Made by a program: the position numbers and the translations under genes | In this document: in pieces, positions 1 through 42,340 of the stretch | Numbering within the stretch: the first letter of the stretch is position 1 | How the letters are laid out: each line of letters starts with the position of its first letter | DNA from: an uncultured Bacteroidales bacterium | GTDB lineage: Bacteria; Bacteroidota; Bacteroidia; Bacteroidales; VadinHA17 | Assembly (NCBI GenBank): GCA_963829255.1 | Contig: CAWHIG010000016.1 | Location: 10,145-74,144, forward strand | Reading direction: 5' to 3' | DNA length: 64,000 nucleotides | The notes under the pieces: model-generated | Told to the model about the DNA's origin: nothing | What the model saw: only the letters and a program-made list of their open reading frames with translations | Databases searched by the model: none

Positions 1-223
1 TTCTTTTCATCTTGTAACATAAGATGAATCCGCTGTCATCACTTTCCATCATCAGGTCAAAGATAGCCAGGTCAGGTTTGAATCTTGCAATTACCGATTC
101 TGCCTCAGCCTGACTTTCCACAGCAATAGTTTTGTAACCTTCTTTCTCAAGATTGAAGACTGTCTGAAAAAGGTAATCCGGATCATCATCAGCAACAAGT
201 ATCGTTATATCACTCTTTTTCAT
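1..223 (-). CDS. Response regulator, receiver (REC) domain; only the first 74 codons are present, the gene runs off the window start
   Basis: Own translation from ATG at 223 on the minus strand: MKKSDITILVADDDPDYLFQTVFNLEKEGYKTIAVESQAEAESVIARFKPDLAIFDLMMESDDSGF... It has the acidic DDD pocket and a phospho-acceptor Asp in FDLMM, as in CheY-like receivers. It lies directly downstream of the kinase fusion on the same strand. Confidence 0.8.
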   Translation of the reverse strand, partial: MKKSDITILVADDDPDYLFQTVFNLEKEGYKTIAVESQAEAESVIARFKPDLAIFDLMMESDDSGFILCYKMKR

Positions 224-302
224 CTTTCCACAAATTTCTAAAAATTCTTTAAATCAAACAGTTAATATGATAAATATGATTGTTGTTAATTTAATAACAT
301 TG

Positions 303-420
303 GTGCTGGGTACTGGGTACTGGGTGCTGGTTGCTTAGTCTCTCAGTCTCTCAGTCTCTCAGTCTCTCAGTCTCTCAGTCCCTTAGTCTCCTCTTCTCCT
401 CTTCACCTCTTCACCCCTTC
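303..420. repeat. Three consecutive short tandem arrays: GT(G/A)CTGG x4, (T/C)(T/C)AGTCTC-type 8-mer x7, CTCTTCAC-type 8-mer x3-4
   Basis: Read directly: 303-330 gtgctgg gtactgg gtactgg gtgctgg; 335-390 ttagtctc tcagtctc (x4) tcagtccc ttagtctc; 391-420 ctcttctc ctcttcac ctcttcac cccttc. It sits between the kinase stop and the response-regulator start. Confidence 0.9.
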
Positions 421-2381
421 TATTCTTTCCTCCTTGGCAACACAATTTTAAAACTCGTTCCGGTTGCACCTTTGGCAGGATTATTATTCGAATCTGCAGT
501 GATCTGACCTTTATGCATTTTAACAATGCCATAGGCAGTTGCCAGTCCCAGTCCGGTTCCCTGTCCGATGCTTTTGGTCGTAAAGAATGGTTCGAAAATC
601 TTAGCCCGGTCTTCCTCCTTTATACCCGTACCTGTGTCACTTATAACAATTATTACGTCGCTGAGAGTGTCTTCCATCTTAATATTGACTGTTCCTCCTG
701 CCGGCATTGCATCAAAAGCATTCTTAATAAGATTTGTCAGTACCTGCATCATCTGTTCCTGATCGAGCATAGCTTCAGGATTTGTCGTCCTGTCATCGAT
801 ATTGATTTTAATCTTTGCAGGAATAATGAGGCTTTCAAGGCTGTGTTCTACCAGATCTTTAATACTGACTGTTTGATGGTTAACCTGATTCTTGCGGGCA
901 AAATTCAAAAGACCTGCAACAATTTTCTTGCATCTTCCGGCCTGGTCAACAATCAGTTTAAGATCTTCTCTGACAGGATCTCCGGCTTTCGATTCTTCCA
1001 GGAGAATGTTGCTGTACATTATTACGACTCCGAGAGGATTATTCAGCTCATGTGCTATACCTGCCGAAAGCTGGCCCATATGAGCCAGTTTTTCTGACTG
1101 TTTAAGAGCCTGTTTCATCGATGAGAGCTTCTCGTTTGATAATGCCAGATCCTTTACTGATTTGTGAAGTTTTTCGATAGTATAAGGCAGACACATCTCA
1201 ACTTCAGCCAGTCCCTTTTTGATTGCTATTGCATGCTCCACACAGCTTTCATAACCGCATGCACCACAATCGAGCTGATCCTTCTTTGTCTTCTTACCCA
1301 TCTTAATAAGAATCTCATTCACATCATTCTCATTAAGAGTCTCAATCCCATGATCTTGTGGTTTATGCCTGATCGACAGGTCCAACTCCGCGTATTCGTC
1401 AAACGATTTTTGCCAGCTCTCAGAATCGATATTTTGCATTTTACTGTTGGCATAGGAGCTTACCAGTGACCTTCTGTTGTATTGCTTACCGTTTTTTGAT
1501 AAACCGGGTCCCATAATACATCCCTCACAGCAAAGAAGTTCCATATGCTGGTTCTTAATCAGACCGGCTTCAAATTCCTTTAAGGCTCCCTGAAAGTCAA
1601 TTCTTCCTTCAGCAGCTATAATATTCCCTGTTATCGCATTGTCGCTTATCTTGGCTGTCTGAAGTAATCCACGGGCAACCGGGAAAATAGCACCTCTTCC
1701 GCCAAGAGGCTGATCAAATTCTACCGGGGTACCTGTCTCAGTGGTGATACCTCTCTCAGACAGCATATCTCTTAATTCGGTAAATGTTATAGCCTCATCA
1801 ACTTCACTGCTTTCAGCTTTCTTGGCAATACAGGGTCCGATAAATACAATTCTTGTATCCTTGCCATATTTTTCACGCATCACTCTGCTCATAGCCACCA
1901 TTGGAGAAACAACAGGAGCCAGGTTATCTACAAGAGCAGGGTGATAAAATTTGACATAGTTAACAATTGAGGGGCAATCAGATGAAATATAAAAATTTTT
2001 TCCCTCCGAAACAAGTTTTTTATATCTGTCTGCAACCAGGTCAGCACCGAAAGAAACTTCTGCAACGAATTCAAAGCCCAGCGCCTTAATCATACCTGTA
2101 AGAATATGATGATCAGGGATATCAGAGAATTCTGCGGGAAAACTGGGAGCAACAATAGCTGCAACTTTCGATTCACTTTCGAGAAGTTTTGCTACCCTGT
2201 CGGTTGTATTAAGAAAGACCTTTGCTCCCTGGCTGCACACTTTTGTACAATTGCCGCAGGCTATGCATCGCTCATCAATTACCTCGGCCTGTCCTCCCAC
2301 AATCCGGATAGCTTTGGCAGGACATTCCCTTACGCAGGTATAGCATGTACGGCAAAGCTCCTTTATTGTGTAAACCAACAT
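420..2381 (-). CDS. Putative sensory [FeFe]-hydrogenase-like protein (HydS-type H-cluster domain) fused to a histidine kinase (HisKA + HATPase_c)
   Basis: 653-aa ORF. It has two ferredoxin motifs ([23 protein letters not shown]). The H-cluster domain has variant motifs P1 SSDCPS, P2 GPCIAKKAE and P3 [13 protein letters not shown]. An extra Cx2Cx4Cx16C motif follows ([26 protein letters not shown]), then a coiled coil. Kinase motifs are the H-box [14 protein letters not shown]-box [10 protein letters not shown] and G-boxes DTGTGI and GTGLGL. Confidence 0.85.
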
Positions 2382-2399
2382 GTTAATTCAGTCTTATAA

Positions 2400-4121
2400 T
2401 CATAATAATACATTTCTTTTCTCAAAATGAGTAAAGAATATCTTTTTATCTGCAATATCAGCATTATCTTTTAACAGCTTTTCATATAAGTTGATAAGAG
2501 ACGGCGATTTGCATGGGAGATTAATCGCCTCTGTATCATCAGCCTGGTATACAAGTTTCGACCTGTTCCTGATCTCATCCTTTGAGGGACTGAAAGGTAA
2601 ACCTGCCCCATGTACGCATCCACCCTGACAAGTCATCACTTCAATCAGGTCATACTTTTTACCGGCTGCCATGGAAACTTTTAACTTTGCCAGACCTGTC
2701 AGACCATCGACAACTGCGACGTTAACCCCGTTGTCTCCTACCATAACTGAAATTTCCCTGAATGTTCCTCCCGATCGCAGCTTTTTAAAAATCTGTTTAT
2801 CAGGCTCTTTCTTCATTTTTTGATAATGATATGTCCTGATGACACCTTCAGCCATCCCTCCCGATACTTCAGCCATTATGGCGGCTGAGCTTCTTCCGGA
2901 CAGAGGTTCATCTGCCGGTTCATGTTCAATGTTTGAAGTGTCGATGCCGTATAACCTTATAAGCCTGGCCAGTTCTCTCACTGTCAAAACAGTATCCACA
3001 TCACTTATACCTTTTCTCATCATCCCGTCGCGACGGGCTTCAAATTTCATTGCCATGCAGGGAGTTGCAGATACAGAAAAGATCTCTTCAGGTTTAACCT
3101 GCAGCTGATCCGCTACCAGAGTCTTGATCAGTACGCCGGTGATCTGTTGCGGAGATTTTACGGTCGAGAGTTGAGGAATAAGCGAAGGAATAAATTGCTC
3201 AGCATATTTTACCCATGCAGGACAGGCAGAGATATACAAAGGGGTATCTGACTTATTCTCAATTCTGCCGGAGAGCTGATCTGCGATCTCGGATATACAA
3301 ACATCAGTACCTAATCCTGTTTTAAAGACCTTATCAAAACCAATTTTACGCAGGATGGCATTGAGAATCTTATCAAATTCCCTGGTATATCTCATCCCAA
3401 GTTCCTCGGCAATTCCGTAAACAACCATGGATGAATACTGAATGACCTTTACTATTTCAGGTTTATTAAGATATTCCTGTACTTCTGTAATATTGTGTTT
3501 TTCATGAAGAGCCCCGGTAGGGCAAACAAGTACACACTGGCCGCAATGAATACAGCTTGAAAAGTTAAAGTCCCTGTCCATGGCGGCGCCAACATGTGTT
3601 TCTCTTCCTTTATTAATAAAATCAAGTGATGTTGCAGTAATTACCTCCTCACAGACTCTGACGCATCGCCCACAGAGTATGCATTTGGACAATTCCCGTA
3701 TAATTGCCGGGCTGGATTGGTCGAGACGTGGTTTTATTTTTCTTCCGCGTATGCGCCTCTCTCGTATATTGAGCTCTTCAGCAAGCCTTTGAAGTTCACA
3801 ATTCAGGTTCCGGTCGCAGTACAGGCAATCGTCAGGATGGTTTGACAGCAGCAGTTCGACTATAGTTTTTCTTGCGGTAATTACCCTTGGGGAGTGTGTT
3901 TTAATTTTCATCCATTCCTCAACCGGCTGTGAGCAGGCTGTTACAAGACGGTCACGTCCTTCGACTTCAACAACACACATTCTACAGGCACCTGTAGGTG
4001 TAAACTCCTTCATTCTGCAAAGCGTCGGTATAATAATTCCGTTGCGATTAAGGGCGGAAAGGATTGTTTCACCCTTTTCGGCTTTGATCTTCTTATTATT
4101 TACCTGTAGTGTAAAAAGCAT
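2400..4121 (-). CDS. hydA: [FeFe]-hydrogenase large subunit, HydA-like (NuoEF-coupled architecture) with non-canonical H-cluster motifs
   Basis: 573-aa ORF. The N-terminus is 2Fe-2S ferredoxin-like, followed by HPDDCLYCDRNLNC and two 4Fe-4S motifs (CILCGRCVRVC, CIHCGQCVLVCP). The H-domain motifs are ISACPAW, TPCMAMKFE and EVMTCQGGCVHGAGLP, with a small-subunit-like C-terminal tail. It starts 5 nt after hydB ends and stops 18 nt before the next gene. Confidence 0.85.
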   Translation of the reverse strand: MLFTLQVNNKKIKAEKGETILSALNRNGIIIPTLCRMKEFTPTGACRMCVVEVEGRDRLVTACSQPVEEWMKIKTHSPRVITARKTIVELLLSNHPDDCLYCDRNLNCELQRLAEELNIRERRIRGRKIKPRLDQSSPAIIRELSKCILCGRCVRVCEEVITATSLDFINKGRETHVGAAMDRDFNFSSCIHCGQCVLVCPTGALHEKHNITEVQEYLNKPEIVKVIQYSSMVVYGIAEELGMRYTREFDKILNAILRKIGFDKVFKTGLGTDVCISEIADQLSGRIENKSDTPLYISACPAWVKYAEQFIPSLIPQLSTVKSPQQITGVLIKTLVADQLQVKPEEIFSVSATPCMAMKFEARRDGMMRKGISDVDTVLTVRELARLIRLYGIDTSNIEHEPADEPLSGRSSAAIMAEVSGGMAEGVIRTYHYQKMKKEPDKQIFKKLRSGGTFREISVMVGDNGVNVAVVDGLTGLAKLKVSMAAGKKYDLIEVMTCQGGCVHGAGLPFSPSKDEIRNRSKLVYQADDTEAINLPCKSPSLINLYEKLLKDNADIADKKIFFTHFEKRNVLL

Positions 4122-4126
4122 AAAGG

Positions 4127-6061
4127 TTATTTAACATTTACTGCACTGAACTTACAAATATCAAAACAGATACCACAACCGATACATTTTTCTTCGACAA
4201 TAAAGAAAGGCTGAAGTCGTGTTCCATAAATCGCGTTTACAGGGCATTTTGAAGCACAGGCTGTGCAACCGGTACATTTGTCCACATCAATTGAGAATGT
4301 TCTTAATCCCCTGCAGATATTTGCCCTGCATTTTCTGTCAAAAATATGCTCTTCAAACTCATCTCTGAAATTCTTCAGAGCGCTGATGAATGGGTTTGGA
4401 GCAGTCTGCCCAAGTCCGCAAAGTGAAGTGTCCTTCATTACTGATGCGATTGTTTCGAGTTGCATGACTCCTTTAAACCTTTCAAGAGTTGTACCTGATT
4501 CTTCATTTAAAGGTTTCCTGATCACACTTTCCAGTATCTCGAGCATCCTGCCGGTACCTTCACGGCATGGGATACATTTACCACAACTTTCGTTACGGAT
4601 AAATTCCATATAATATCTTACAAGATCAACCATACAGGTGTTCTCATCGATAATGACGAATCCTCCTGCTCCCATTCCAATCCCTTTTTCTTTAAGATCT
4701 TCGTAATCAACGGCAATATCGAGATTTTCACTTGTTATGAAAGAACCCGAAACGCCTCCGAGCTGTATTGCCTTAAACTCTTTTCCCCCCTTTATTCCAT
4801 CAGCAATATCTTCCAGAACTGTCCTGATAGTTGTGCCCATTTCGATCTCAACGACGCCCGACATACGACCTTTTCCTGCAACTGCAAATACTTTGGTACC
4901 CGGACTGTTTTCGGTTCCCAGCGTCCGGAACCATTCTGGTCCGTTCTGCATTATCAGGGGGACATTCATCAGAGTCTCCACATTGTTTATCACTGTCGGT
5001 TTTCCGAATAGTCCGGCGGTTGTAGGATAAGGAGGTTTTAGTTGAGGCATGCCCCGTTTTCCTTCAAGAGTATTTATCAGAGCAGTCTCTTCACCGCAAA
5101 CGAAAGCTCCGGGTTCAATACGGATCATAATATCAAGATTATAACCGCTTGAGAAAATATTATGTCCGAAAAGCCCGTAATCTCTGGCCATGTCGATTGC
5201 TTTCTGAAGCCTGTTCTTAGCATGGTCAGAACCCGATCTCATAAATATAATGGCATTTGAGGCCCCAATAGCATATGCAGCAATTGCAATACCTTCTATA
5301 AGGCGGTGCGGATCGCTTTCAAGAATGGTTCTGTCAGTAAAAGCTCCGGGATCGCTCTCTTTTGCATTACAGATAAGATACCGTGCATTTGAAGTAGTAT
5401 TCAGAGCATGCTTCCACTTTAGTCCTGTCAGATATCCTCCGCCGCTTCTGCCTCTCAATCCGCTTCTTTCAATTATGTCGCATACCTCTTCAAAAGTATA
5501 ATTTCTGATTGCTTTGATATATGCACGATAGCCTCCACGGGCTATATATTCATTAATGCTTTCAGGATCATAACATCCACAATTTCCAAGTATGATCCTT
5601 TTTTGTTTTTTGAAAAAAGGCAGCTCATCCATAAAAGGTATTCCGGACCACAGTTCAAAACCTTTAGTACCGATCTGACCGGCCAGATCATCCTCATTTA
5701 TATCATTATGAAAAACACCATTCAGAAGAGGCTCCACCTTCTCTTCTGTGATGTTTCTGAAGAACAGTTTATTCTTACCCGGGATCTGAACACATACCAG
5801 TGGTTCAAAAGTTGCAGGTCCGTTACACCCGACATTCACTAACGCTGCAGATGGTTCATTTTCCGTTAAATAGGTCTCGATTGCTGAACAGGTTTTTTCA
5901 GATCCTGCAATAATACTGCTTGTACCGGAAGAGATAAAGATTACCGGCTTGTCAGGCTTTTCCCTTCTCACCTGCTGCAATACCTTTTCTGTTTCCGGCA
6001 ATAATGTATCGGATTCAAACAAAAGTACTTTTTCAATCAGGAATGTTTTTAAATCTTCCAT
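4127..6061 (-). CDS. hydB: NuoF-like flavoprotein subunit of the hydrogenase complex (HydB-like)
   Basis: 644-aa ORF with NuoF/HydB signatures: GLRGRSGGGYLTGLKW, CNAKESDPGAFTDR and ESCGKCIPCREGT. The C-terminus has two 4Fe-4S motifs, CTGCTACASKCP and CIGCGICFDIC. Confidence 0.85.
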   Translation of the reverse strand: MEDLKTFLIEKVLLFESDTLLPETEKVLQQVRREKPDKPVIFISSGTSSIIAGSEKTCSAIETYLTENEPSAALVNVGCNGPATFEPLVCVQIPGKNKLFFRNITEEKVEPLLNGVFHNDINEDDLAGQIGTKGFELWSGIPFMDELPFFKKQKRIILGNCGCYDPESINEYIARGGYRAYIKAIRNYTFEEVCDIIERSGLRGRSGGGYLTGLKWKHALNTTSNARYLICNAKESDPGAFTDRTILESDPHRLIEGIAIAAYAIGASNAIIFMRSGSDHAKNRLQKAIDMARDYGLFGHNIFSSGYNLDIMIRIEPGAFVCGEETALINTLEGKRGMPQLKPPYPTTAGLFGKPTVINNVETLMNVPLIMQNGPEWFRTLGTENSPGTKVFAVAGKGRMSGVVEIEMGTTIRTVLEDIADGIKGGKEFKAIQLGGVSGSFITSENLDIAVDYEDLKEKGIGMGAGGFVIIDENTCMVDLVRYYMEFIRNESCGKCIPCREGTGRMLEILESVIRKPLNEESGTTLERFKGVMQLETIASVMKDTSLCGLGQTAPNPFISALKNFRDEFEEHIFDRKCRANICRGLRTFSIDVDKCTGCTACASKCPVNAIYGTRLQPFFIVEEKCIGCGICFDICKFSAVNVK

Positions 6062-6079
6062 CGGGGATTATTACAGGAG

Positions 6080-6574
6080 TTAGTCGTTTTCAATAATGTA
6101 CTTTAATTTTTTTATCAGTTCAGGAAGTTGCTCCGGTTTCACATGAGTATGATATTCGCCGTTCACATTGATAACCGGGCCATTACAACAGCCCCCCATG
6201 CATGAGACGATCTCATAGCTGAAATTGCCATCCCGTGTTGTCAGTCCTGGTAATACTCCAGTCTCTTCCCTTATTTTATTAATGATTGATTGTGATCCGT
6301 TAAGGAAGCATGAGGTGCCATTGCAGATCCTGATCTGAATTTTTCCTGAGGGAATGAACCTGAACCTGTCATAAAATGTAGCCAGGCCATAGATCTTTGT
6401 AGTGCTCAGACCTAAAAAGCTCCCTGTTTTAACAATAGCTTCCTCAGAGAGATAACCCAGATTGTCCTGTATTTCCTGAAGCAAAGGAATAAGATCTTCC
6501 CTTTTACCCTGTTTGTATTTTTTAAGAATTATTTCAAGATCAGTCGCCATCCAGATTATATTAAAGAATTTCAA
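6080..6574 (-). CDS. hydC: NuoE-like thioredoxin-fold [2Fe-2S] subunit (HydC-like)
   Basis: 164-aa ORF with a Cx4C...Cx3C pattern (ICNGTSCFLNG ... SCMGGCCNGP). An alternative start is the Met at 6550 (MATDLEIILKKY). Confidence 0.85.
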   Translation of the reverse strand: MKFFNIIWMATDLEIILKKYKQGKREDLIPLLQEIQDNLGYLSEEAIVKTGSFLGLSTTKIYGLATFYDRFRFIPSGKIQIRICNGTSCFLNGSQSIINKIREETGVLPGLTTRDGNFSYEIVSCMGGCCNGPVINVNGEYHTHVKPEQLPELIKKLKYIIEND

Positions 6575-6589
6575 TACAAAGATAATTGA

Positions 6590-6634
6590 TTTTATTGTTA
6601 ATAAATAAACATTGTTATTTTATTAACAATAAAA
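6590..6634. promoter_or_regulatory. Perfect 16-bp inverted repeat carrying three ATTGTTA/TAACAAT half-sites, immediately upstream of hydC; candidate repressor operator with Rex-like geometry
   Basis: TTTTATTGTTAATAAA (6590-6605) is the exact reverse complement of TTTATTAACAATAAAA (6619-6634). An inner ATTGTTA (6611-6617) and TAACAAT (6624-6630) are spaced by 6 nt. This is the same layout as TTGTGA-N6-TCACAA. Confidence 0.4.
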
Positions 6635-6855
6635 TAACTAACTATATTTATTATACTTTTTTAAATATATTATTGAATATTAACGTTTTACAAATTTTAA
6701 TAAAATCAGGTCGAGCATAAGTTACATCATCTGAAATGTAAGTCGGACCGGTTTTACATATTAATCATGTGAATCTAAGAAGAAAAGAGGTAGATAACAG
6801 CTCGGAAATAATTATTACTTTTGTTGCTGTTGTTTATTTATGAACAGAAAGAAAA

Positions 6856-7110
6856 ATGGCTCAAAGAATTGAGATGCAAATCTGTCTTGGAAGCTCCTGT
6901 TTTTCAAGAGGTAACAAAGACGTCGTAATGTTCATAAGAGAATATCTCAGGAAAAATCATCTTGATGACAAAGTTGTTTTTAAAGGTGCCCGATGTATGG
7001 GTCTTTGCAGTAATGGACCAAATCTGAGTATAAACGGCGTAACCCTTGAAGGGGTTACTCTTTCAAAAATAGAGAGTATACTTGAAAAAGAATTTGCCGG
7101 AATAGTATAA
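6856..7110 (+). CDS. Small thioredoxin-like [2Fe-2S] ferredoxin (NuoE-fold)
   Basis: 84-aa ORF with ICLGSSCFSRGN ... ARCMGLCSNGP, the same Cx4C/Cx3C spacing as hydC. It is the first gene of the plus-strand unit. Confidence 0.8.
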   Translation: MAQRIEMQICLGSSCFSRGNKDVVMFIREYLRKNHLDDKVVFKGARCMGLCSNGPNLSINGVTLEGVTLSKIESILEKEFAGIV

Positions 7111-7112
7111 GA

Positions 7113-7235
7113 AAAGTTTGAAGTGAGCTAAAGTTTGGAGTGACTAAAGTTGAAATGAAAGAATGAATAATGATAAAGTTGAATAATACTATAATACTTT
7201 AGCACTTTAGCACTCTAGGCACTTTAGGCACTAAT
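7113..7235. repeat. Inverted arrays of a CTAAAGT(G)/(C)ACTTTAG unit between the 2Fe-2S gene and the PAS sensor gene; potential long imperfect hairpin
   Basis: Left arm: aaagtttgaagtgagctaaagtttggagtgactaaagt. Right arm: actttagcactttagcactctaggcactttaggcact. The units are reverse complements of each other. Confidence 0.6.
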
Positions 7236-7245
7236 ATAAGTTAAT

Positions 7246-9132
7246 ATGGCAAACAGAAAGCCTGTTCTTTACATAAATGATGAAAAGTGCAGAAATTCAT
7301 ATTCCTGCGTACGAGTCTGCCCTGTAAACGCAATTGAGGTTAAACCCCAAAAGGCGCATCCGTTCATTCTTCCCGACAGATGCATCGGATGTGGTTTATG
7401 CTATGTTTCATGCACACCACACGCAATAGAATTCCGCGATTCAAAAGAATCAGTTAAGAAACTGTTATCATCCGGAAGAAAAACCGCAGCTCTTATTGAG
7501 CCAAGCATTGCATCGGAATTTGATGATATAACAGATTACCGGAAGTTCGTTGCTATGATAAGGTCGCTGGGTTTTGACTATGTTCACGAAGATTCGTTCG
7601 GAGTCGATCTGATAGCCGCTGCCTATGCAAAACTTTTCTTAAAAGCTGAAGGTAAATATCTGATCACGGCAAACTGCCCTTCAATTGTCAAACTTATTGA
7701 GAAGTTTCACCCCGAACTGGTTCCTAACCTTGCACCACTTGTCTCGCCTATTATAGCTACTGCAATGGTTGTAAAAAAGCTATACGGACCTGAGGTAGCT
7801 ACAGTTCAGATTGGCCCATGTATTGATGCAAAAGATGAATCGCTTATCTATGATTCAGATAAGCTTGTTGACGGAGTACTGACTTTTGTGGAACTGAGAG
7901 AGCTTTTTGATGAATTCAAGATCCAGGAAAGACTGGTAAAGATGTCCGATTTTGATCCGCCTCATGGAAATTGGGGGGCTCTCTACCCTCTGCCAGCAGG
8001 GATTATTCAGGCAGGAGGTATAAAGCGCGATATGGTTTCGAGCAGGGTAATTACAGCTTCCGGAAAAGAAGAAATCCTTGAAGCAATTAATGATTTCGAC
8101 AAATATATTGACACGATACAACACCATTTTAACTTATTCTTTTGCCATGGATGCCTGCTCGGTCCGGGAATGCAACATCATAATGAACGATTCAGGAGAA
8201 GAGCACTGGTGCGGAAGTATGCTGAAAAGAGAGTGGGCAAACTTGATAAAGCTCTCTGGCAAAAAAATATGGAAAAATGGTCAAAGCTGGATTTTTCAAG
8301 AGGTTTTACACCCGATGATCAGAGAATACCTGAACCGCCGGAAGAAGCTATTTTGGAGGTGCTTAAAATCATCGGCAAAAACAGCCCCGATGAGGAGATC
8401 AACTGTGGTGCCTGTGGCTATCTCTCTTGTCGTGAATTTGCTTCAACAGTTGCAAAAGGACTTGCGGTTCCGGAAATGTGCCATACCTTCAATCTTCGTA
8501 ATAAACAGGAATATATTGAGACTCTCCGGCAAACAAACAGGAAACTGGCTGAAACAAAAAAAGCCTTAAAAGAATCAGAAGAACTGGCACGCAGGGAAAA
8601 GGAGATTGCTCAAAGCACTTCAGATATGATGAACAACATGCTCGAAAAGCTTCCTTCCGGAGTGGTAATTGTTGATAATAATCTAAAAATACTTCATTCA
8701 AATCAAAGCTTTATTAACATAATCGGAGAGGATGCAAAAGCCATATCAGATGTAATTCCCGGTCTTGCCGGTGCAGATATCAAGACCCTCATCCCCTTCA
8801 ACATTTATAATATGTTCACATTTGTAATAAAGGAAGATGAACCTGTTGTAAGCAAAGATGTTCATTTTGAAGATAAAATGCTGAATATTTCCATCTTTCC
8901 GATAAGAAAGAACAAGATCTGCGGAGCAATAATCCGCGATCTGTATTCACCTGAAGTACAGGGGGAAGAGGTAACAAACAGAGTCAGTGAGGTGATTGAT
9001 AAAAACCTTGAAATGGTTCAAAAGATAGGATTCCTGCTTGGAGAAGGTGCATCTGAAACCGAGCAGATGCTGAACTCAATAATTGAATCGTACAAAACAA
9101 AAAAAGTGAATCTGAAAAACAACCTCAAATAA
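7246..9132 (+). CDS. Putative sensory [FeFe]-hydrogenase-like protein (HydS-type) with C-terminal PAS-like domain
   Basis: 628-aa ORF. Ferredoxin motifs are CRNSYSCVRVCP (3 Cys) and CIGCGLCYVSC. H-domain variants are P1 TANCPS, P2 GPCIDAKDE and P3 NLFFCHGCLLGPG. It has CGACGYLSCREFASTVAKGLAVPEMC, a coiled coil, then a PAS-like segment (LPSGVVIVDNNLKILHSNQSFINIIG...). Confidence 0.85.
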   Translation: MANRKPVLYINDEKCRNSYSCVRVCPVNAIEVKPQKAHPFILPDRCIGCGLCYVSCTPHAIEFRDSKESVKKLLSSGRKTAALIEPSIASEFDDITDYRKFVAMIRSLGFDYVHEDSFGVDLIAAAYAKLFLKAEGKYLITANCPSIVKLIEKFHPELVPNLAPLVSPIIATAMVVKKLYGPEVATVQIGPCIDAKDESLIYDSDKLVDGVLTFVELRELFDEFKIQERLVKMSDFDPPHGNWGALYPLPAGIIQAGGIKRDMVSSRVITASGKEEILEAINDFDKYIDTIQHHFNLFFCHGCLLGPGMQHHNERFRRRALVRKYAEKRVGKLDKALWQKNMEKWSKLDFSRGFTPDDQRIPEPPEEAILEVLKIIGKNSPDEEINCGACGYLSCREFASTVAKGLAVPEMCHTFNLRNKQEYIETLRQTNRKLAETKKALKESEELARREKEIAQSTSDMMNNMLEKLPSGVVIVDNNLKILHSNQSFINIIGEDAKAISDVIPGLAGADIKTLIPFNIYNMFTFVIKEDEPVVSKDVHFEDKMLNISIFPIRKNKICGAIIRDLYSPEVQGEEVTNRVSEVIDKNLEMVQKIGFLLGEGASETEQMLNSIIESYKTKKVNLKNNLK

Positions 9133-9138
9133 TCTTAA

Positions 9139-10284
9139 GTGAACAGGAACTTTTTTATAGAGGTTAACAGCCAGCAAAGGAACTTCGACGGGGAGAGGAT
9201 CAGCGGCGATGTATTTCTGTACAGGTATATTAAAGAAGAAGACAGGGTTGTTGCCGTATTATCCGATGGTATGGGACATGGGGTTAAGGCAAATATTCTT
9301 GCAACCCTTACGGCAACAATGGCCATAAATTTTACACGCGAACATAAGGAGGTTGACCGTATCGCTGAGATTATAATGAATACACTTCCGGTATGCAGCG
9401 AAAGAAAGATCAGTTATTCAACTTTTACAATTATAGATATTGAAAACAGCGGCAGGACAACAATACTGGAATATGATAATCCATCCTGTATTGTTTTAAG
9501 AGGGAGCCAGATATTTGATCCTTCATGGAAAAAAGTAGTGCTCGAGAAAGGTAAAAACTCAGGTAAGGTTCTGAAAACATGCACATTTTTGCCTGAGAAA
9601 GAAGACAGAATTATCTTCTGCTCTGATGGTGTTTCACAAAGCGGAATGGGAAGTGAACCATTTCCTTTTGGCTGGGAAAGGGACAGCATTGCCACTTATG
9701 CTGCATCGCTTGTTACAAGTGAAGCATCAATTTCTGCCAATATGCTTGCCGGAAAGATTGTTACGATGGCTCATAAAAACGACAACTATAAAGCCCGTGA
9801 TGATATAAGCTGTGCAACAATCTATTTCCGTGAACCCCGTAAATTAATTATCTGTACAGGTCCCCCATACGAGAAGGAAAAGGACAAAGATCTGGCCGCA
9901 AAAGTAGTTGCATATAAAGGAAAAGTGATCCTCTGCGGAGGTACAACAGCAGATATAGTTGCCCGGGAATTAAACAGGACTATTATTGATGAACTTATAT
10001 TCGAAGATCCGGAACTGCCGCCGGAAAGTTTCCTGGAAGGCATTGATCTGGTGACCGAAGGAATCCTGACACTTCAAAAGGTCAACGAAATATTGAAAAC
10101 TTATAATAACAGTGTAAAACTCGGAAAAGGACCGGCAGATAAGATCGTAAGGCTGATTATGGAGAGCGATGAGATTCACTTCGTTATCGGTACCAGGATC
10201 AATATCGCACATCAGGATCCTAATCTGCCTGTTGAACTTGAGATCAGGACGAACTGTAGTAAAGCGCATTGCGCGTCTGCTTGA
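9139..10284 (+). CDS. PP2C/SpoIIE-family serine phosphatase with an extra C-terminal domain
   Basis: 381-aa ORF with a GTG start 6 nt after the sensor stop. SpoIIE-type motifs are ISGDVFLY, VLSDGMGHGVKANILA and IFCSDGV. The 3' end may continue in the +1 frame to 10324 (see findings). Confidence 0.8.
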   Translation: MNRNFFIEVNSQQRNFDGERISGDVFLYRYIKEEDRVVAVLSDGMGHGVKANILATLTATMAINFTREHKEVDRIAEIIMNTLPVCSERKISYSTFTIIDIENSGRTTILEYDNPSCIVLRGSQIFDPSWKKVVLEKGKNSGKVLKTCTFLPEKEDRIIFCSDGVSQSGMGSEPFPFGWERDSIATYAASLVTSEASISANMLAGKIVTMAHKNDNYKARDDISCATIYFREPRKLIICTGPPYEKEKDKDLAAKVVAYKGKVILCGGTTADIVARELNRTIIDELIFEDPELPPESFLEGIDLVTEGILTLQKVNEILKTYNNSVKLGKGPADKIVRLIMESDEIHFVIGTRINIAHQDPNLPVELEIRTNCSKAHCASA

Positions 10285-10332
10285 GGAAAAATGGCTGAAG
10301 AAAGTGACTTTTGAATATATCTGAAAATTCAT

Positions 10333-10508
10333 TTAACCACAAAGTACACTAAGAAGGTGCCCCCTGGGGTTGTCTAAAAAGTCCTTTGTGAACCTTAGTG
10401 TTAACCTTAGTGTCCCTTTGCGGTAAAAAGTAAAAAATTGAACCACAAAGGATCACAAAGTACATCACAAAGGAACACAAAGGAGTGCACTTCACACTTT
10501 GTGGTTAA
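10333..10508. repeat. Palindromic CACAAAG-type intergenic element (terminal TTAACCACAAAG / CTTTGTGGTTAA)
   Basis: It starts ttaaccacaaagtacactaag and ends cacactttgtggttaa, with internal runs of cacaaagg / cctttgtg words. It lies between convergent genes, and the stop codon of the NUDIX gene lies in the terminal TTAA. Confidence 0.8.
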
Positions 10509-10944
10509 TGGATTTTTTTGATCTCTAAATACTCTATCGTCTTGTTGAACAAATGCGGCTGAATATCCGGATGAGTGAGATTTTCGGGAAGATGATCTGA
10601 CAAAACTATTTCAGCAATTTCCGAAATATCGGGTATCGGACCAATCTCAGAAACTTCAGCAAAGTAAAGCCTCCCCCAGCCTGTATCTCCGTCAATTGTC
10701 ACTGAATATGTTGCAACACATATTAGACTCAAATTTCAACAGCACCGGTTTCTTCCATTAATTCTCTTCCGGCTGCCTCAAATGAAGTTTCCCCCTCTTC
10801 AATATGACCTCCGGCAATCTCCCAGGTTGAACGCTTTTGATGCCGGACAAAAATCCATTTGCCTTTGAACCTGGCTGATATAACTGAATAGGTCAGTTTT
10901 GAATCAGGGACAAAAAGCGGGTCGAAAAATTTAACTTCGGTCAT
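10505..10944 (-). pseudogene. NUDIX hydrolase split by one frame shift (may be a consensus error)
   Basis: ORFs 10729..10944 and 10505..10732 are consecutive. The Nudix box GGHIEEGETSFEAAGRELMEETG is in the first part. The frames differ by 1, and the break is confined to aaattt at 10731-10736. Confidence 0.75.
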
Positions 10945-11028
10945 ATTACTCCGACATTGTAATTGCGAATGTAAGAATAATCGGGATAATTAATATTTGC
11001 TTACTTTTGATTATTAAAATTCATTCCA

Positions 11029-12231
11029 ATGGTATTATTGATTATTCTGATCATCACAGAGATTCTCACACCAGTTGTATTACGGCAGCATTTTTACAAC
11101 TATTCAAAGCCAAAATATTACATTTCAATTATTATTCACGTCATTCTTAGCATATGGGTCTGGATCCTTTATATTGAAACAACTTCCAATAAAACCTTTT
11201 TCGATAATCCCCGGCATGTCTGGTTGATGATGAATCTGACAGGAATGATTATTGCGGTGGTAATTCCAAGAATTATTCTGATTATTTTGCATTTCTCCGG
11301 AACATTAATAAAAATTAAGAGCAGAGGCCATGTAAGATCATTGACAAATTCAGGGCTTATTGTAATGAGTATTATACTAACAATAATAGCTCTGGGTTCA
11401 CTTTACGGAAGGTTTAATTTCAAGACAGAAGAAGTCACCATTAAAATCCAAGGGTTAAATAAGGATCTTGACGGTTTGAAAATCGTACAGCTATCTGATA
11501 TGCATCTCGCCACATTTTATCATCACAAAAAATTGTTGCAGAGGGTAATGGATGAAGTAAATACATATAAACCTGATCTGATTCTCAACACAGGTGACTT
11601 TGTCAGCTATGGATGGAGGGAGTTTGAAAGTGACGACACAATTCTCTCAAAAGCCCGGAGTAAATATGGCAATTTTGCTATTTTAGGTAACCACGATGTC
11701 GGAACTTATGACCCATATTTCACTGAAGCAGACAGAGAGAATAATATATTGATAATGAATAAATTGATCAAAGCTTCAGGATACCAGACACTTAATGATG
11801 AATTTAGAATAGTTAATATTGGAAAAGCAAAAATTGCACTTATAGGTGTTATCACCAAAGGACGGCATCCACATATGATTCATGGAGATCTGAACAAAGC
11901 AATTTCAGGACTTGACAGTGTTGACCTTAAGATACTTCTCACTCACGATCCAAATCATTGGGCTGAGGCAGTAACGGGGAAAACTGACATTGGGATCACT
12001 CTTTCAGGACATACTCATGGTATGCAGATGGGGATACTTACAAAAAAATTCAGATGGAGCCCGGCAAAATATTTCTATCCTCACTGGAATGGACTTTACA
12101 GAACCGGTAATCAATATCAATACGTCAACCGGGGACTTGGGGTTCTGGCAATTCCATTCAGAATATGGATGCCACCGGAAATAACAATACTAACAGTTAA
12201 AAGGAATAATCATACTGAATACAGATTTTGA
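11029..12231 (+). CDS. Membrane-anchored metallophosphoesterase (calcineurin-like)
   Basis: 400-aa ORF with an N-terminal multi-TM region. Phosphoesterase motifs are LSDMHL, TGDFV, GNHD and SGHTHG. Confidence 0.8.
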   Translation: MVLLIILIITEILTPVVLRQHFYNYSKPKYYISIIIHVILSIWVWILYIETTSNKTFFDNPRHVWLMMNLTGMIIAVVIPRIILIILHFSGTLIKIKSRGHVRSLTNSGLIVMSIILTIIALGSLYGRFNFKTEEVTIKIQGLNKDLDGLKIVQLSDMHLATFYHHKKLLQRVMDEVNTYKPDLILNTGDFVSYGWREFESDDTILSKARSKYGNFAILGNHDVGTYDPYFTEADRENNILIMNKLIKASGYQTLNDEFRIVNIGKAKIALIGVITKGRHPHMIHGDLNKAISGLDSVDLKILLTHDPNHWAEAVTGKTDIGITLSGHTHGMQMGILTKKFRWSPAKYFYPHWNGLYRTGNQYQYVNRGLGVLAIPFRIWMPPEITILTVKRNNHTEYRF

Positions 12232-12253
12232 TATTCACAATTATTTGAAAAGA

Positions 12254-12282
12254 AACGGGCAGCAGATAAACTGCCGCCCGTT
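12254..12282. terminator. GC-rich hairpin between convergent genes (bidirectional terminator candidate)
   Basis: aacgggcagcag ataaa ctgccgcccgtt forms a 12-bp stem with one mismatch, 20 nt after the phosphoesterase stop. Confidence 0.55.
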
Positions 12283-12290
12283 GTTATTAC

Positions 12291-12331
12291 CCTACCCTGA
12301 TCTTTTTACTAACCTACTAACCTACTAACCT
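12291..12331. repeat. Short tandem array TACTAACC x3
   Basis: tactaacc tactaacc tactaacc at 12307-12330, preceded by the related cctaccctga. Confidence 0.7.
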
Positions 12332-12401
12332 GTGAAGATATGGTCGAAAAAAATTATTTGGAATAATTTACTAACCATCTCAGTTCGGGTAACGTGGAAT
12401 T

Positions 12402-12806
12402 TTAATTTTGTCTTTGCTGCATCATGGCCTGCCTTCTTTCAGCCTCTTTGGTTTTAAAAAGTTCATAATTTTTATCTCCAAGTATAACTTTCAATTCTTT
12501 ATCTCTGGCAGCTGTAATTTCTGTCATCTTTGCTCTCATTGCATCACGGTCTCCTGCAGCCATAAGTTTTTGCCTCTCCTCTGATGATTGTTTGGCATAC
12601 TTCAAAACTACATCGTATACTTTCTTCTGTGTTGCCTCATCGAGCTTAAGGTCGGTTTTCATCCATTCAACCTGTGTTTTTGCCGTCTCTTCAGGAGTTC
12701 TTTGAACTCTCTGGCCTCCCTGACCTCCCTGACCCTGCTGTGCAGAAAGGGAACCCATGAAGAAAGAAAAAACAATTATTGATAAAATTCTGATTCCTGT
12801 TTTCAT
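12402..12806 (-). CDS. Secreted helical protein of unknown function (signal peptide, QG-rich linker)
   Basis: 134-aa ORF. It has the signal peptide MKTGIRILSIIVFSFFMGSLSAQ, then a QGQGGQGGQ linker and charged helical repeats. Confidence 0.6.
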   Translation of the reverse strand: MKTGIRILSIIVFSFFMGSLSAQQGQGGQGGQRVQRTPEETAKTQVEWMKTDLKLDEATQKKVYDVVLKYAKQSSEERQKLMAAGDRDAMRAKMTEITAARDKELKVILGDKNYELFKTKEAERRQAMMQQRQN

Positions 12807-13006
12807 AAAATGTCGGTTTAAAATATTATTTATGATTTATAGACAACATATAACGCAGTAATATTCCTGAAAATTTGATTTTTAGAAATTTTTAACTTAT
12901 CACTTAAAACAATTTAACAGGAGAAATGTTCAAACCGATATTCCCGATGAGCCTGTTCAGGTGTACTATTTTTAGTAAATTGCAACAATTCAGAGTATAA
13001 GAATTA

Positions 13007-13714
13007 ATGGCAGAAGATCCGAAAATCTACAAAATAGAGGATATAGAATTCCAGGTTATTTATTCAGGAAGAAGGAGTATAGGGATCAGCGTCCGACCCG
13101 ATTCATCAGTGATTGTGAGGGTCCCCTATCTTACTTCCTTTAAAACTATAAACAGGATTGTAAGGGAAAAGTACGGATGGCTTTTAAAACATCGTGACAA
13201 TTACAGGAGACTTGATAATAGTTCGCTGAACAAATCATATACAACAGGCGAAATTCATCTTTTCCACGGAGATAAAACTGTTCTTAAAATTGAAAAATCA
13301 GGACAATCCTATATCCGGTTTAACAACAACACATTCGAACTGGGATTGAAAAGAACAGATGATCCGCTGGCAATAAAAAGACTGCTTTATAAAGGTTACA
13401 AAAATGAAGCTTTGATAGTTTTTCCTGAACTGATGAATAAGGTTATCAGGGAACACGAAAATCAAATGTTCAAGCCGGCAGGATTGGTTATAAGAACTAT
13501 GAAAAGACGCTGGGGAAGCTGCTCCAGCAAAGGAATAATAACATTAAGCACTGAACTCATAAAACTTGCAGACCGGTATATTGAATATGTTATTATTCAT
13601 GAGTTATGCCATCTTAAACACCACAACCATGGCGCACGGTATTATAAACTTTTATCAGAAGTTTTCCCGGAATGGAAAACTGTAAGAAAAGAATTGAGAA
13701 AATACATACAGTAG
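13007..13714 (+). CDS. YgjP-like (DUF45/M48-related) zinc metallohydrolase
   Basis: 235-aa ORF with RRWGSCS and the HELCHLKHHNH motif near the C-terminus. Confidence 0.8.
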   Translation: MAEDPKIYKIEDIEFQVIYSGRRSIGISVRPDSSVIVRVPYLTSFKTINRIVREKYGWLLKHRDNYRRLDNSSLNKSYTTGEIHLFHGDKTVLKIEKSGQSYIRFNNNTFELGLKRTDDPLAIKRLLYKGYKNEALIVFPELMNKVIREHENQMFKPAGLVIRTMKRRWGSCSSKGIITLSTELIKLADRYIEYVIIHELCHLKHHNHGARYYKLLSEVFPEWKTVRKELRKYIQ

Positions 13715-13768
13715 GAGGTTTCTCTTGCCTCTGGATATTTCCTTCCCCGATCCCTTCTCCATTATTTT

Positions 13769-13900
13769 TACCTCATCCCCCTGCCCCCTTCTCCTGAAAG
13801 AGAAGGGGGCAAAAGAAAGATAATCAGACACATAGGCCCCTCTCCTTCAGGAGAGGGGTTGGGGTGAGGTAAACTCAATGAGATGGGTTAGGGTGAGGTA
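13769..13900. repeat. Compound palindromic element (two GC-rich hairpins enclosed by ACCTCATCCCC / GGGGTGAGGT arms)
   Basis: Hairpin 1 is gcccccttctc ctgaaa gagaagggggc (13783-13810). Hairpin 2 is cccctctcc ttca ggagagggg (13837-13858). The outer arms are at 13770-13780 and 13861-13870. It lies between convergent genes. Confidence 0.75.
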
Positions 13901-13907
13901 CAGGCAA

Positions 13908-15309
13908 TCAAAGTTCATATTCCTGACCTTTGGCAGGTATTTCAATGTTTTTAAACCCTTCATCTGAAAGAGTCGAAACATACTTTTTCTGTGTCTCGTA
14001 CTCACCATGAACTATAAAAATCTTCGAGAGGCCGCTTTTATTCTGGCAACTTAAAAAGTTGACCATCTCCTTATAATCGCCGTGTCCGCTGAATGATTCG
14101 ATTTTTCTCACTTCAGCTTTTACTTCATAAACTGTTCCAAATATAGAGACTTCTCTATCACCTCTTCCTATCCTTGCTCCTAGTGTTGTTGGAGCACAAT
14201 ATCCTACAATAAGGATCGTATTGCGCGGATCAGAGATATTATTTGCCAGATGATGTTTTACCCGGCCGGCTTCCATCATACCTGAAGCGGAAATAATAAC
14301 ACACGGTTTTTTATGATCGTTGAGTTTTTTTGAATCCTCAACTTTAGTAATATAAAATAGATTTTCAAATCCAAAAGGATCGGGATCGTTTTGCAATACA
14401 TTAAGGAAATTCTGATTATAACACTCCGGATGCATTCTGAAAACAGTAGTTGCATTAACAGCAAGGGGACTATCTACAAAAATATCAATCCTGGGCAATT
14501 TGCCCTGATTAAAAAAGTTATTGAGTGAAAAAACGATTTCCTGTGTGCGGCCAACACTGAAAGCAGGGATTATAAGCTTCCCACCTTTATTTACACATGT
14601 ATTCACTACTACGTTCAGAAGCTCTTCTTCTGCCATCACTGTATCGTTATGTAGCCTGTCTCCATAAGTTGATTCAGTAATAAGGATTTCTGCCTGGGGG
14701 AAAGGCTTTGGAGGAGCAAGTATCTGATCAACCAGTCTGCCTATATCACCTGTATAAGCTATCTTTTTGATCTGCCCGTTTTCGGTGATCTGAAGATTTG
14801 CCACACCGCTGCCAAGCATATGGCCGGTATTTGTGAACTTAACTTTTACGTTTTCATCAACCCTGAAATTCATTTCATATGGTACACCGATAAAGAGTTT
14901 CATACAGGCTGTTGCATCAGCCTGTGTATAAATAGGTTCCACCGGTCGCAAGTCCCTTTTTAACTCTGCGTTTATTGAAAGTCAATGTATCATGCTCCTG
15001 AATAAAAGCAGAATCAGCCAGCATTATAGCACAAAGGTCACGGGTTGCATTAGAACAGATCACCGATCCCCTGAAACCAAGCTTATAAACATAAGGTATC
15101 AGTCCTGAATGATCTATATGGGCATGGGTAAGAATAATATGATCAATCTGAGACGGATCAAACATAAGGTCTCTGTTCATACCATCTGTTTCCAGGCCTT
15201 TTCCCTGGAACATGCCGCAATCAAGAAGTATTTTTTTCCCTGAATCTGTGGTAATAAGATGTTTGCTTCCTGTTACTTCTCTTGCAGCACCTATAAATTT
15301 TATTATCAT
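13908..15309 (-). pseudogene. MBL-fold beta-CASP family hydrolase (RNA-metabolising type), split by one frame shift
   Basis: ORF 14917..15309 carries HAHIDHSG. ORF 13908..14951 continues the family. The frames overlap at 14917-14983, and ...RVKKGL then PVEPIYTQADA reads through if one base near 14946 is removed. Confidence 0.8.
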
Positions 15310-18802: not shown

Positions 18803-18967
18803 AAGGTTAAGGTAAAGGGTAAGGTTAAGGTTAAGGTTAAGGTTAAGGTTAAGGTTAAGGTTAAGGTTAAGGTTGATTGTTACCATGCTTGTAGCTCATA
18901 GGTTTCTGATTTCTATACGATACTGATTACTGATTACTGATTACTGATTACTGATTACTGATTACTG
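18803..18967. repeat. Two tandem arrays: AAGGTT hexamer x about 11 (18803-18875) and TACTGAT/CTGATTA heptamer x about 6 (18921-18967)
   Basis: Read directly. The heptamer array overlaps the stop codon of the oxidoreductase gene at 18962. Confidence 0.9.
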
Positions 18968-26073: not shown

Positions 26074-26167
26074 GAGGTGCGAGGTGCAAGGTGCTAGGTG
26101 CTAGGTGCAAGGTGCTAGGTGCTAGGTGCTAGGTACTATCCTGCAACCTGCAACCTGCACCCTGCAC
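26074..26167. repeat. Tandem heptamer arrays (G/A/T)AGGTGC x9 followed by CCTGCA(A/C) x4 in roughly inverted orientation
   Basis: gaggtgc gaggtgc aaggtgc taggtgc ... taggtac (26074-26136), then cctgcaa cctgcaa cctgcac cctgcac (26140-26167). Confidence 0.9.
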
Positions 26168-38681: not shown

Positions 38682-38768
38682 AAATGGATAGAAATGAAAA
38701 ATAGAAAATGAATAGAAATGAATAGAAATGAATAGAAATGAATAGAAATGAATAGAAATAAGTAGAAG
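38677..38768. repeat. Tandem decamer array AATAGAAATG x about 9
   Basis: Read directly. It overlaps the SPFH stop codon (38679-38681). The same decamer recurs at 42271-42340. Confidence 0.9.
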
Positions 38769-38780
38769 TATTTTGAGTCT

Positions 38781-38820
38781 AAAAACCAGGCCTGGAAGTA
38801 ATCTAAGTCTGGTTTTTTTC
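38781..38820 (+). terminator. Hairpin plus T-run after the NfeD-SPFH operon
   Basis: aaaaaccag ... ctggttttt stem followed by a T7 run. Confidence 0.5.
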
Positions 38821-38850
38821 TCTTTGAGTTAGTATCTAACAATATATTAC

Positions 38851-38923
38851 AATCAATTTCAACCTATTTCAATTCATTTCAACACATTTCAACACATTTC
38901 AACACATTTCAACACATTTCATC
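38851..38923. repeat. Tandem decamer array (A)ACACATTTC-type x about 7, opposite orientation to the GAAATG arrays
   Basis: aatcaatttc aacctatttc aattcatttc aacacatttc x4. It ends at the stop codon of the glycyl-radical enzyme gene. Confidence 0.9.
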
Positions 38924-41328: not shown

Positions 41329-41456
41329 TTTCTTCCTTTGTGTTCCTTTGTGACATCCTTGTGTTCCTTCGTGGTAAGAAAAAATTTAACCACAAAGGAC
41401 ACGAAGGGATTCACAAAGGAATTATTATAAGAACGTTGCATGCAACGTCCCTACAC
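41329..41456. repeat. Composite intergenic element: CACAAAG-type palindrome plus ACGTTGCATGCAACGT palindrome
   Basis: cttcctttgtgttcctttgtga ... tttaaccacaaaggacacgaaggg, then gaacgttgcatgcaacgtccctac (41431-41454). Confidence 0.8.
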
Positions 41457-42270: not shown

Positions 42271-42340
42271 GAAATAAATAGAAATAAATAGAAATGAATA
42301 GAAATGAATAGAAATGAATAGAAATGAATAGAAATGAATG
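42271..42340. repeat. Tandem decamer array GAAAT(A/G)AATA x7 (same unit and orientation as 38677-38768)
   Basis: gaaataaata x2, gaaatgaata x4, gaaatgaatg. It starts 7 nt beyond the activase start codon. Confidence 0.9.

Follow-up and report, generated by a model that had tools for sequence, protein, structure and literature searches.

The hydS-HK gene lies near one end of a 64,000-nucleotide stretch of DNA (the window) from an uncultured Bacteroidales bacterium of the VadinHA17 lineage (contig CAWHIG010000016.1, positions 10,145 to 74,144) and encodes a sensory-type [FeFe]-hydrogenase fused to a histidine kinase. HydS-HK is probably a cytoplasmic sensor histidine kinase whose input module, the hydrogenase, is responsive to H2 or to redox state. 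The fusion is real, conserved, widespread and already catalogued as a kind; the details added here are a heptad-phased linker, an invariant Asp at the proton-relay position and a genomic context made up of a stand-alone receiver (REC), a receiver-histidine kinase hybrid (REC-HK) and Rex. The gene and its parts, in window coordinates, are as follows.

420..2381, minus strand: hydS-HK, sensory-type [FeFe]-hydrogenase fused to a histidine kinase, 653 aa (open reading frame (ORF), Pfam, PDB alignments, AlphaFold2)
2223..2372, minus strand: two ferredoxin-type [4Fe-4S] motifs, residues 4-53 (Pfam Fer4_10/Fer4_9/Fer4)
1506..2168, minus strand: H-cluster domain (H-domain), residues 72-292 (Pfam PF02906 Fe_hyd_lg_C, E 1.5e-42)
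1185..1277, minus strand: C-terminal [4Fe-4S] motif Cx2Cx4Cx16C, Cys372, 375, 380 and 397 (PF04060 FeS, Pfam residues 369-399)
1053..1190, minus strand: linker helix, residues 398-443, from the last cluster Cys to the H-box (AlphaFold2, alignment)
888..1079, minus strand: HisKA, the dimerization and histidine phosphotransfer domain (DHp), residues 435-498, with phospho-acceptor His444 in AHELNNPL (Pfam E 3.5e-13)
429..764, minus strand: HATPase_c, residues 540-651, with N, G1 (DTGTGI), F and G2 (GTGLGL) boxes (Pfam E 6.4e-24)

The architecture proposed in the first-pass annotation of this DNA, an H-domain and an extra four-Cys cluster fused to a complete HisKA/HATPase transmitter, is confirmed by the Pfam matches and the intact 653-aa ORF. 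A failure to match PF02906 had been named beforehand as one possible refutation; the match was found, across residues 72-292. Frame errors, suspected as a possible flaw of the kinase half, are excluded because 78 orthologues align over 649-653 aa without internal stops and keep all of the catalytic boxes. These orthologues come from the species-level genomes used throughout, 80 in all, which are metagenome-assembled genomes of uncultured Bacteroidales from fen, peat and lake sediment. The same domain architecture occurs in more than 120 database clusters (at least 90% identity).

The cluster domain runs directly into the kinase. Cys397 and His444 are 47 residues apart, all of them helical in an AlphaFold2 model (monomer, alignment of 35 relatives, mean predicted local distance difference test (pLDDT) score of 88.3), where a single continuous helix of residues 398-463 begins right after Cys397 and passes through the H-box. 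The coiled coil noticed earlier maps to residues 404-438, and Leu or Ala occupies the heptad positions 405, 412, 419, 426, 433 and 440. A PAS domain was sought in residues 290-462 using Pfam at E ≤ 1 and the structure model, and none was found. The relaxed scan and the continuous helix give no sign of a hidden PAS domain between the cluster and the H-box and bear out the initial description of a coiled coil leading straight into the H-box. The usual definition of group C, an H-domain fused to a PAS domain, does not cover HydS-HK.

Linker length was surveyed in 150 representatives of 50%-identity clusters, 45 of which are direct fusions. The Cys-to-His distance is 33, 40, 47, 54 or 68 residues (equal to 5 modulo 7) in 41 of the 45, and alignment indels in the linker are multiples of 7, or whole heptads. 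This heptad phase shared across direct fusions is the strongest evidence for the predicted helical junction. The junction is not the "shortest possible wiring" it was first taken for, with relatives at 40 and 33 residues being one or two heptads shorter. Survey variants with 141-199 or 396 residues between Cys and His presumably carry inserted PAS domains.

The hydrogenase half retains the residues that hold an H-cluster. Its motifs are SSDCP (Cys136), GPCIAKK (Cys184, Lys187) and ELLCCEGC (Cys285, Cys288), and alignment to CpI and HydA structures equates Cys136, 184, 285 and 288 with CpI Cys300, 355, 499 and 503. The four ligand Cys, Asp135 and Lys187 show no variation in 79 HydS-HK orthologues, Pro137 and Glu190 are also conserved, and in 35 diverse relatives down to 29% identity the ligand Cys vary little or not at all. 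Across the same 35 relatives the N-terminal Cys10, 13, 16, 20, 39, 42, 45 and 49 are invariant or nearly so, and Cys372, 375, 380 and 397 of the C-terminal cluster are invariant. The N-terminal ferredoxin-type clusters are the best-conserved part of the protein (mean majority-residue frequency 0.99, 78% of columns invariant).

The shell around the active site differs from that of CpI. In the structure-based alignment the proton-relay Cys299 is replaced by Asp135; more distant members of the family have N, T, A, P, S or D here. HydS-HK has also lost the proton path of group A (Glu279 to Arg119, Glu282 to Lys122). Met353 is replaced by Gly and Met497 by Leu, as in slow sensory enzymes (PMC8163306), and Lys358 is retained as Lys187. 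The L3 motif is Cx2C, compared with Cx3C in group A. The C-terminal Cx2Cx4Cx16C is a signature of the putatively sensory M2e/M2f HydS enzymes, including those of Thermotoga maritima (TmHydS) and Thermoanaerobacter mathranii (TamHydS) (PMC8163306). By these motifs and by its paralogy to a PAS-type sensor encoded nearby, HydS-HK is a putative sensory [FeFe]-hydrogenase of the group C/D HydS type. Similarity to group A structures is weaker.

The kinase half aligns over its full length to the structures of ZraS, CckA and KinB with the H, N, G1, F and G2 boxes complete, and the HisKA and HATPase_c matches exceed the Pfam cut-offs. By sequence it is a complete HisKA-class transmitter.

HydS-HK is encoded as the fourth cistron of a hydC-hydB-hydA-hydS operon and begins 18 nt after hydA, as it does in essentially all relatives. 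The other three cistrons encode a HydABC-type hydrogenase, and Rex-box-like palindromes precede hydC.

2400..4121, minus strand: hydA, [FeFe]-hydrogenase catalytic subunit, HydABC-type (Pfam, NCBIfam; E 1.7e-123 to bifurcating HydA1, PDB 8a6t)
4127..6061, minus strand: hydB, NuoF-like flavoprotein subunit (Pfam Complex1_51K, NADH_4Fe-4S, Fer4)
6080..6574, minus strand: hydC, NuoE-like [2Fe-2S] subunit, probable ATG at 6550 (Pfam 2Fe-2S_thioredx, E 6.5e-44)
6595..6629, no strand assigned: two adjacent Rex-box-like palindromes upstream of hydC (1 and 2 mismatches to TTGTTAANNNNTTAACAA)

Relative to CpI, the HydA of the window has Ala for Cys299 (ISACPAW), Thr for Met353 and Met for Lys358, with the Lys shifted by one position (TPCMAMKFE). 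Ala299, Thr353 and Met358 are conserved in 63-67 of 70 orthologues. Ser occupies the P1 (Cys299) position in several BfuA sub-types (PMC11406978). Met358 was considered as a loss of the CN-binding Lys, a reading that is not pressed here: the PAS-type sensor too has its Lys moved to +4.

Rex boxes were scored against the clostridial consensus TTGTTAANNNNTTAACAA (PMC5367854) at a threshold of ≤2 mismatches. The 64 kb contain four matches, three of them in this locus (two upstream of hydC and one at 283-300). All 68 species whose loci include hydC have at least one match upstream of that gene, and about 26 of 80 species have one 76-79 nt ahead of the receiver start. These two promoter-proximal positions account for 140 of 162 matches in 1.46 Mb of related loci. 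Because the matches cluster at the hydC and receiver positions, with the hydC site present in every species scored, the predicted control of the operon by Rex through these sites is well supported.

The gene that follows hydS-HK is cut by the window edge.

1..223 (ORF 2..223), minus strand: 5' part of a stand-alone receiver gene, the first 74 of about 131 residues (Pfam Response_reg E 1.4e-8)

The Response_reg match over these 74 residues agrees with the receiver domain recognized at the start of this gene in the first-pass annotation. Gene order beyond window coordinate 1 was taken from relatives whose kinases are 91-97% identical. An output domain had been expected past the window edge and was to be looked for in flanking sequence; the orthologues at 75 loci are 131 aa long and consist of REC only, with D12, D13, D56 and T85 invariant and no output domain. 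The receiver gene is followed by a 393-aa REC-HisKA-HATPase hybrid and then Rex, both in the genome with the 91%-identical kinase and in the species-level loci. The order hydC-hydB-hydA-hydS-HK-REC-(REC-HK)-rex holds in all sufficiently long loci of the 80 species genomes, and the REC and REC-HK pair still adjoins orthologues at 49% and 43% identity. Because REC and REC-HK are conserved downstream, the Bacteroidales kinase sits in a multi-kinase relay and not in the simple kinase/regulator pair first proposed. An adjacent regulator with an effector domain, the mark of a classical two-component pair, is absent from the Bacteroidales loci. The maturase genes hydG, hydE and hydF occur near the locus in relatives; in the one locus read that far (L001), ribF comes next and hydG and hydE lie further downstream.

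More distant relatives have other partners. In a Chloroflexota contig (L162, JAMCWD010000001.1, 6001..9286) the orthologue overlaps by 32 nt the gene for a sigma54/NtrC-type REC-AAA+-HTH_8 regulator, its linker is two heptads shorter than that of HydS-HK, and hydABC is not adjacent. Among the HydS-HK relatives examined, an NtrC-type partner, and with it a kinase/regulator pair of the classical type, is found only here. In a second locus (L165, JGI Ga0497321_000281, 1706..14004), with a kinase of 43% identity, HydS-HK, REC, REC-PAS-HK and REC lie between two complete hydCBA sets, a layout which suggests that the relay may choose between two hydrogenases.

A divergent operon on the far side of hydC encodes the second sensor.

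6856..7110, plus strand: thioredoxin-like [2Fe-2S] ferredoxin, 84 aa, heading the divergent sensor operon (ORF; L001 orthologue PF01257)
7246..9132, plus strand: second sensory hydrogenase, HydS with a PAS-like C-terminus, 628 aa (Pfam Fe_hyd_lg_C and FeS; weak matches to five PAS families)
9139..10284, plus strand: PP2C/SpoIIE-type phosphatase, partner of the PAS-type sensor (Pfam SpoIIE; synteny kept in species genomes)

The PAS-type sensor and HydS-HK are paralogues with 37% identity over 497 aa. They share the N-terminal clusters, H-domain, C-terminal cluster and coiled coil and part ways where one enters the H-box and the other the PAS region. Two different putative H2 sensors flank one hydrogenase operon. 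An 819-aa protein with a C-terminal SpoIIE/PP2C domain (15397..17856, minus strand) is a second partner-switching-type phosphatase near the locus.

For HydS-HK we infer a mechanism in which H2 is the signal; the sense in which it regulates, the proteins that receive the phosphate and the eventual output are equally inferred. It would start with the reaction of H2 at an H-cluster held by Cys136, 184, 285 and 288. A redox or conformational change would then pass to the Cx2Cx4Cx16C cluster domain. Because a rigid dimeric coiled coil of fixed heptad phase would tie this domain to the DHp helix that bears His444, the state of the hydrogenase module could set the kinase/phosphatase balance. Phosphate would move on to the stand-alone 131-aa receiver, to the receiver of the REC-HisKA-HATPase hybrid, or to both. 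The place of hydS-HK as fourth cistron means that the sensor would be made together with the bifurcating-type hydrogenase on which it presumably reports. Rex, for which candidate operators precede both hydC and the receiver gene, would contribute an NADH/NAD+ input.

Several observations weigh against this scheme. The helix pLDDT falls to 65-73 around residues 420-450, in a model of the monomer only. Asp at the Cys299 position makes real turnover by HydS-HK conceivable, since Asp, in contrast to the usual Ala, can be protonated (PMC10407848). The Bacteroidales locus encodes no DNA-binding output except Rex, and a DNA-binding regulator was sought in ten further ORFs (11-27 kb of the window), none of which qualified. 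The Rex site upstream of the receiver gene passes the threshold in only 26 of the 80 species. A full-text search of the accessible literature returned no report of kinase activity for any kinase-fused HydS. The authors of the TamHydS study conclude that reduction of its C-terminal cluster is probably not the signal (PMC13104023), so the step from H-cluster to coiled coil may be conformational or independent of the redox state of the cluster.

HydS-HK might instead be a fourth subunit ("BfuT") docked on HydABC, with N-terminal clusters that take electrons from the complex or from ferredoxin and a kinase that reports electron pressure or flux (the ferredoxin/NADH state) and not free H2. The 18-nt spacing from hydA and the exceptional conservation of the N-terminal clusters fit this idea, the corresponding TamHydS clusters are an electron route (PMC13104023), and such proteins are handled as a T subunit in PMC11406978. 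A plain Fe-S redox sensor, however, would not need conserved H-cluster ligands and Lys187, hydABC does not adjoin the Chloroflexota orthologue, and physical association with HydABC is conjectural. We regard a docked subunit as unlikely. A three-input controller is a decidedly unlikely arrangement. It would have no transcription-factor output of its own; the two hydrogenase sensors, one kinase-wired and one PP2C-wired, would join Rex in feeding a REC/REC-HK relay that acts post-translationally on HydABC. Asp135 would allow turnover so that hydrogenase flux, not H2 binding, sets kinase activity, and HydA (Ala299, Met358) would be an unusually tuned catalyst.

An H-domain that lacks the [2Fe] subcluster would turn HydS-HK into an Fe-S-based O2 or redox sensor kinase with cubane clusters only. 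H-cluster motifs are barely detectable in kinase-domain group C1 proteins of Hydrogenedentota (PMC11406978), and the Cx2C form of L3 and the wide variation at the Cys299 position point the same way. The chances of this account are slim, however, given that the four ligand Cys, Pro137, Lys187 and Glu190 are all conserved, that relatives carry hydG, hydE and hydF close to the locus, and that characterised HydS enzymes with comparably changed pockets bind an H-cluster (PMC8163306).

HydS-HK could also be cast mainly as a working hydrogenase with Asp135 as proton relay and the kinase as a secondary function, HydA without Cys299 and Lys358 being the poorer catalyst; Asp135 is invariant in the clade and the HydA substitutions are those conserved in its own orthologues. 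CpI variants with Ser or Asp in place of Cys299 reportedly keep activity, and a structure of CpI C299D has been solved (6GLZ). PMC10407848 describes a shift in catalytic bias in CpI with either exchange. Such a role is nevertheless extremely unlikely for a protein in which the other group A proton-path residues are absent (Glu279 to Arg, Glu282 to Lys), Met353 and Met497 are changed as in slow sensory enzymes (PMC8163306), and the kinase boxes are strongly conserved.

A sensory hydrogenase linked to a kinase has precedents in the catalogues. HydDB lists group C1 [FeFe] enzymes as "histidine kinase-linked (putative)" (PMC5037454), which in practice often means an adjacent kinase gene (PMC8542988, PMC6163223). 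According to a 2024 computational study (PMC11406978), group C1 includes proteins with HATPase_c domains, and sub-type V BfuABC clusters encode "BfuT", a sensory hydrogenase that has a histidine kinase domain, downstream of bfuA (HydDB WP_006928132.1). In Bacteroidota isolates the cluster holds two bfuT genes, the first upstream of bfuC and the second downstream of bfuA. The novelty implied by the first-pass annotation does not survive these two sources. In reviews and in the biochemical literature the PAS domain is still what defines group C (PMC11216029, PMC13104023). Sub-type V BfuT resembles HydS-HK in joining a sensory-type H-domain to a histidine kinase domain in a gene directly downstream of bfuA/hydA, and the second bfuT upstream of bfuC in Bacteroidota corresponds, by gene order, exactly to the window layout. 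We take WP_006928132.1 to be from Caldithrix abyssi. BfuT differs in being known from genome surveys only, and its description does not include a PAS-less coiled-coil junction, heptad phasing, Asp at the Cys299 position or a REC/REC-HK/Rex module.

The two characterised HydS proteins each share part of this design. TmHydS (group C, M2f) has the two N-terminal [4Fe-4S] motifs, the H-domain and the Cx2Cx4Cx16C cluster, a replaced Cys299, Gly for Met353 and a bifurcating hydrogenase encoded nearby; it differs in having a PAS domain after the cluster, no kinase, and Ala at the Cys299 position where HydS-HK has Asp. TamHydS (group D, M2e) has the C-terminal cluster, no PAS domain and Leu for Met497, and its gene lies beside hydABC and is flanked by a gene for a kinase-like ATPase. 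TamHydS, however, ends after the cluster domain, so any kinase would be a separate protein. It has its own Glu252/Glu289 proton path; the HydS-HK comparison covered the group A path.

The HoxBC/HoxJ/HoxA system of Ralstonia/Cupriavidus likewise uses a slow hydrogenase as an H2 sensor that controls a histidine kinase for hydrogenase genes. Its [NiFe] metal site and fold are unrelated, and its sensor is a protein apart from the kinase, to which it is joined through a PAS-like region of HoxJ. HoxA is an NtrC-type regulator, an output matched only by the Chloroflexota relative. FixL and the engineered YF1 LOV-FixL fusions, which are cytoplasmic kinases that sense through a cofactor, have a continuous coiled coil from sensor to DHp, and YF1 chains (PDB 4gcz/8a3u) are among the PDB matches to the kinase half of HydS-HK. 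Linkers of the FixL/YF1 type are constrained in length to heptad phase. Their input is a PAS or LOV domain, whereas that of HydS-HK is a hydrogenase and Fe-S cluster domain.

According to the latest TamHydS work, clarifying how the signal is passed on first requires that the interaction partner be identified (PMC13104023). In the HydS-HK family the signalling partner is covalently attached, and autophosphorylation would report directly on the state of the H-cluster. With its built-in output HydS-HK is a good system for testing H2 sensing, and its heptad-phased linker is well suited to mutagenesis. Members of the family are abundant in Bacteroidales of fen, peat and lake sediment, habitats where the partial pressure of fermentative H2 governs carbon flow to methane.

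The spacer between the kinase and receiver genes consists of a conserved module and three tandem arrays.

224..300, minus strand: conserved 77-nt AT-rich module upstream of the receiver gene, with a Rex-box-like palindrome at 283-300, 2 mismatches (comparison of spacers)
302..335, no strand assigned: tandem array 1, unit GGTGCTG, period 7, 4.9 copies (Tandem Repeats Finder; absent in closest relative)
337..390, no strand assigned: tandem array 2, unit AGTCTCTC, period 8, 6.8 copies (Tandem Repeats Finder)
387..432, no strand assigned: tandem array 3, unit TCTCCTCT, period 8, 5.9 copies, 13 nt of it shared with the end of the kinase ORF (Tandem Repeats Finder)

The 77-nt module, the 3' part of the spacer in the window, is the whole spacer of the closest relative found (L082, kinase 97% identical), which has no arrays. 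Of 124 unique spacers, 65 contain a 28-nt core of the module. Judged from this comparison of spacers, the module is likely an internal promoter or translation-initiation region. We offer a Bacteroidetes -33/-7 promoter as a suggestion only, since the spacing is not a clean fit to the consensus. A sigma-70 promoter scan of the spacer is uninformative for Bacteroidota.

The first-pass annotation described a 118-nt triple tandem repeat. The 118 nt stand, at 302..419, and the single unit repeated three times gives way to three unrelated arrays. Nor does the repeat mark out the kinase-receiver pair, as had been supposed: L082 lacks it, and the window has short-period arrays in at least 11 further intergenic regions. 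The unique spacers range in length from 0 to 373 nt, with 0-25 nt in several species, and arrays are present in 72 of the 119 that are at least 25 nt long. The periods are mostly 7-10 nt and the units are unrelated between species, though arrays akin to array 2 (GACTGAGA/GACTAAGG) occur with different copy numbers in some other species. A variation of repeat length between strains, raised earlier as a point to check, was found: between spacers that are otherwise almost the same, the differences are single units or, once, a duplication of 47 nt, and L086 and L088 are one repeat unit apart.

The frequency of arrays and the variable copy number among near-identical spacers could mean that the arrays are functional, for example if their changing length adjusted how much transcription of hydS-HK reads through into the receiver operon. 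The array-free closest relative, the 0-25 nt spacers, the unrelated units and the similar arrays in other intergenic regions of the window make this very unlikely. The spacer RNA of the window is less structured than shuffled controls (z +1.6) and a terminator was sought in the kinase-receiver spacer and not found, which rules the spacer out as a terminator or structured RNA and also speaks against tuned read-through. By these comparisons the arrays are non-conserved, slippage-prone filler, apparently dispensable here and outside the signalling device.

Array-bearing intergenic regions elsewhere in the window include 7113-7232, 12307-12331, 12703-12734, 18803-18967, 26075-26166, 38677-38921, 42271-42339 and 49596-49625, with periods of 6-17 nt (for example, AAGGTT x12, TACTGAT x6.7 and AGGTGCT x9). 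Short-period arrays look like a genome-wide microsatellite habit. An element of CTTTGTG-type repeats with their complement (CACAAAG) after them occurs at 10387..10484 and 41333..41373 of the window and is inserted in the kinase-receiver spacers of other species (loci L009, L018, L027, L092 and L111). It resembles a small mobile hairpin element.

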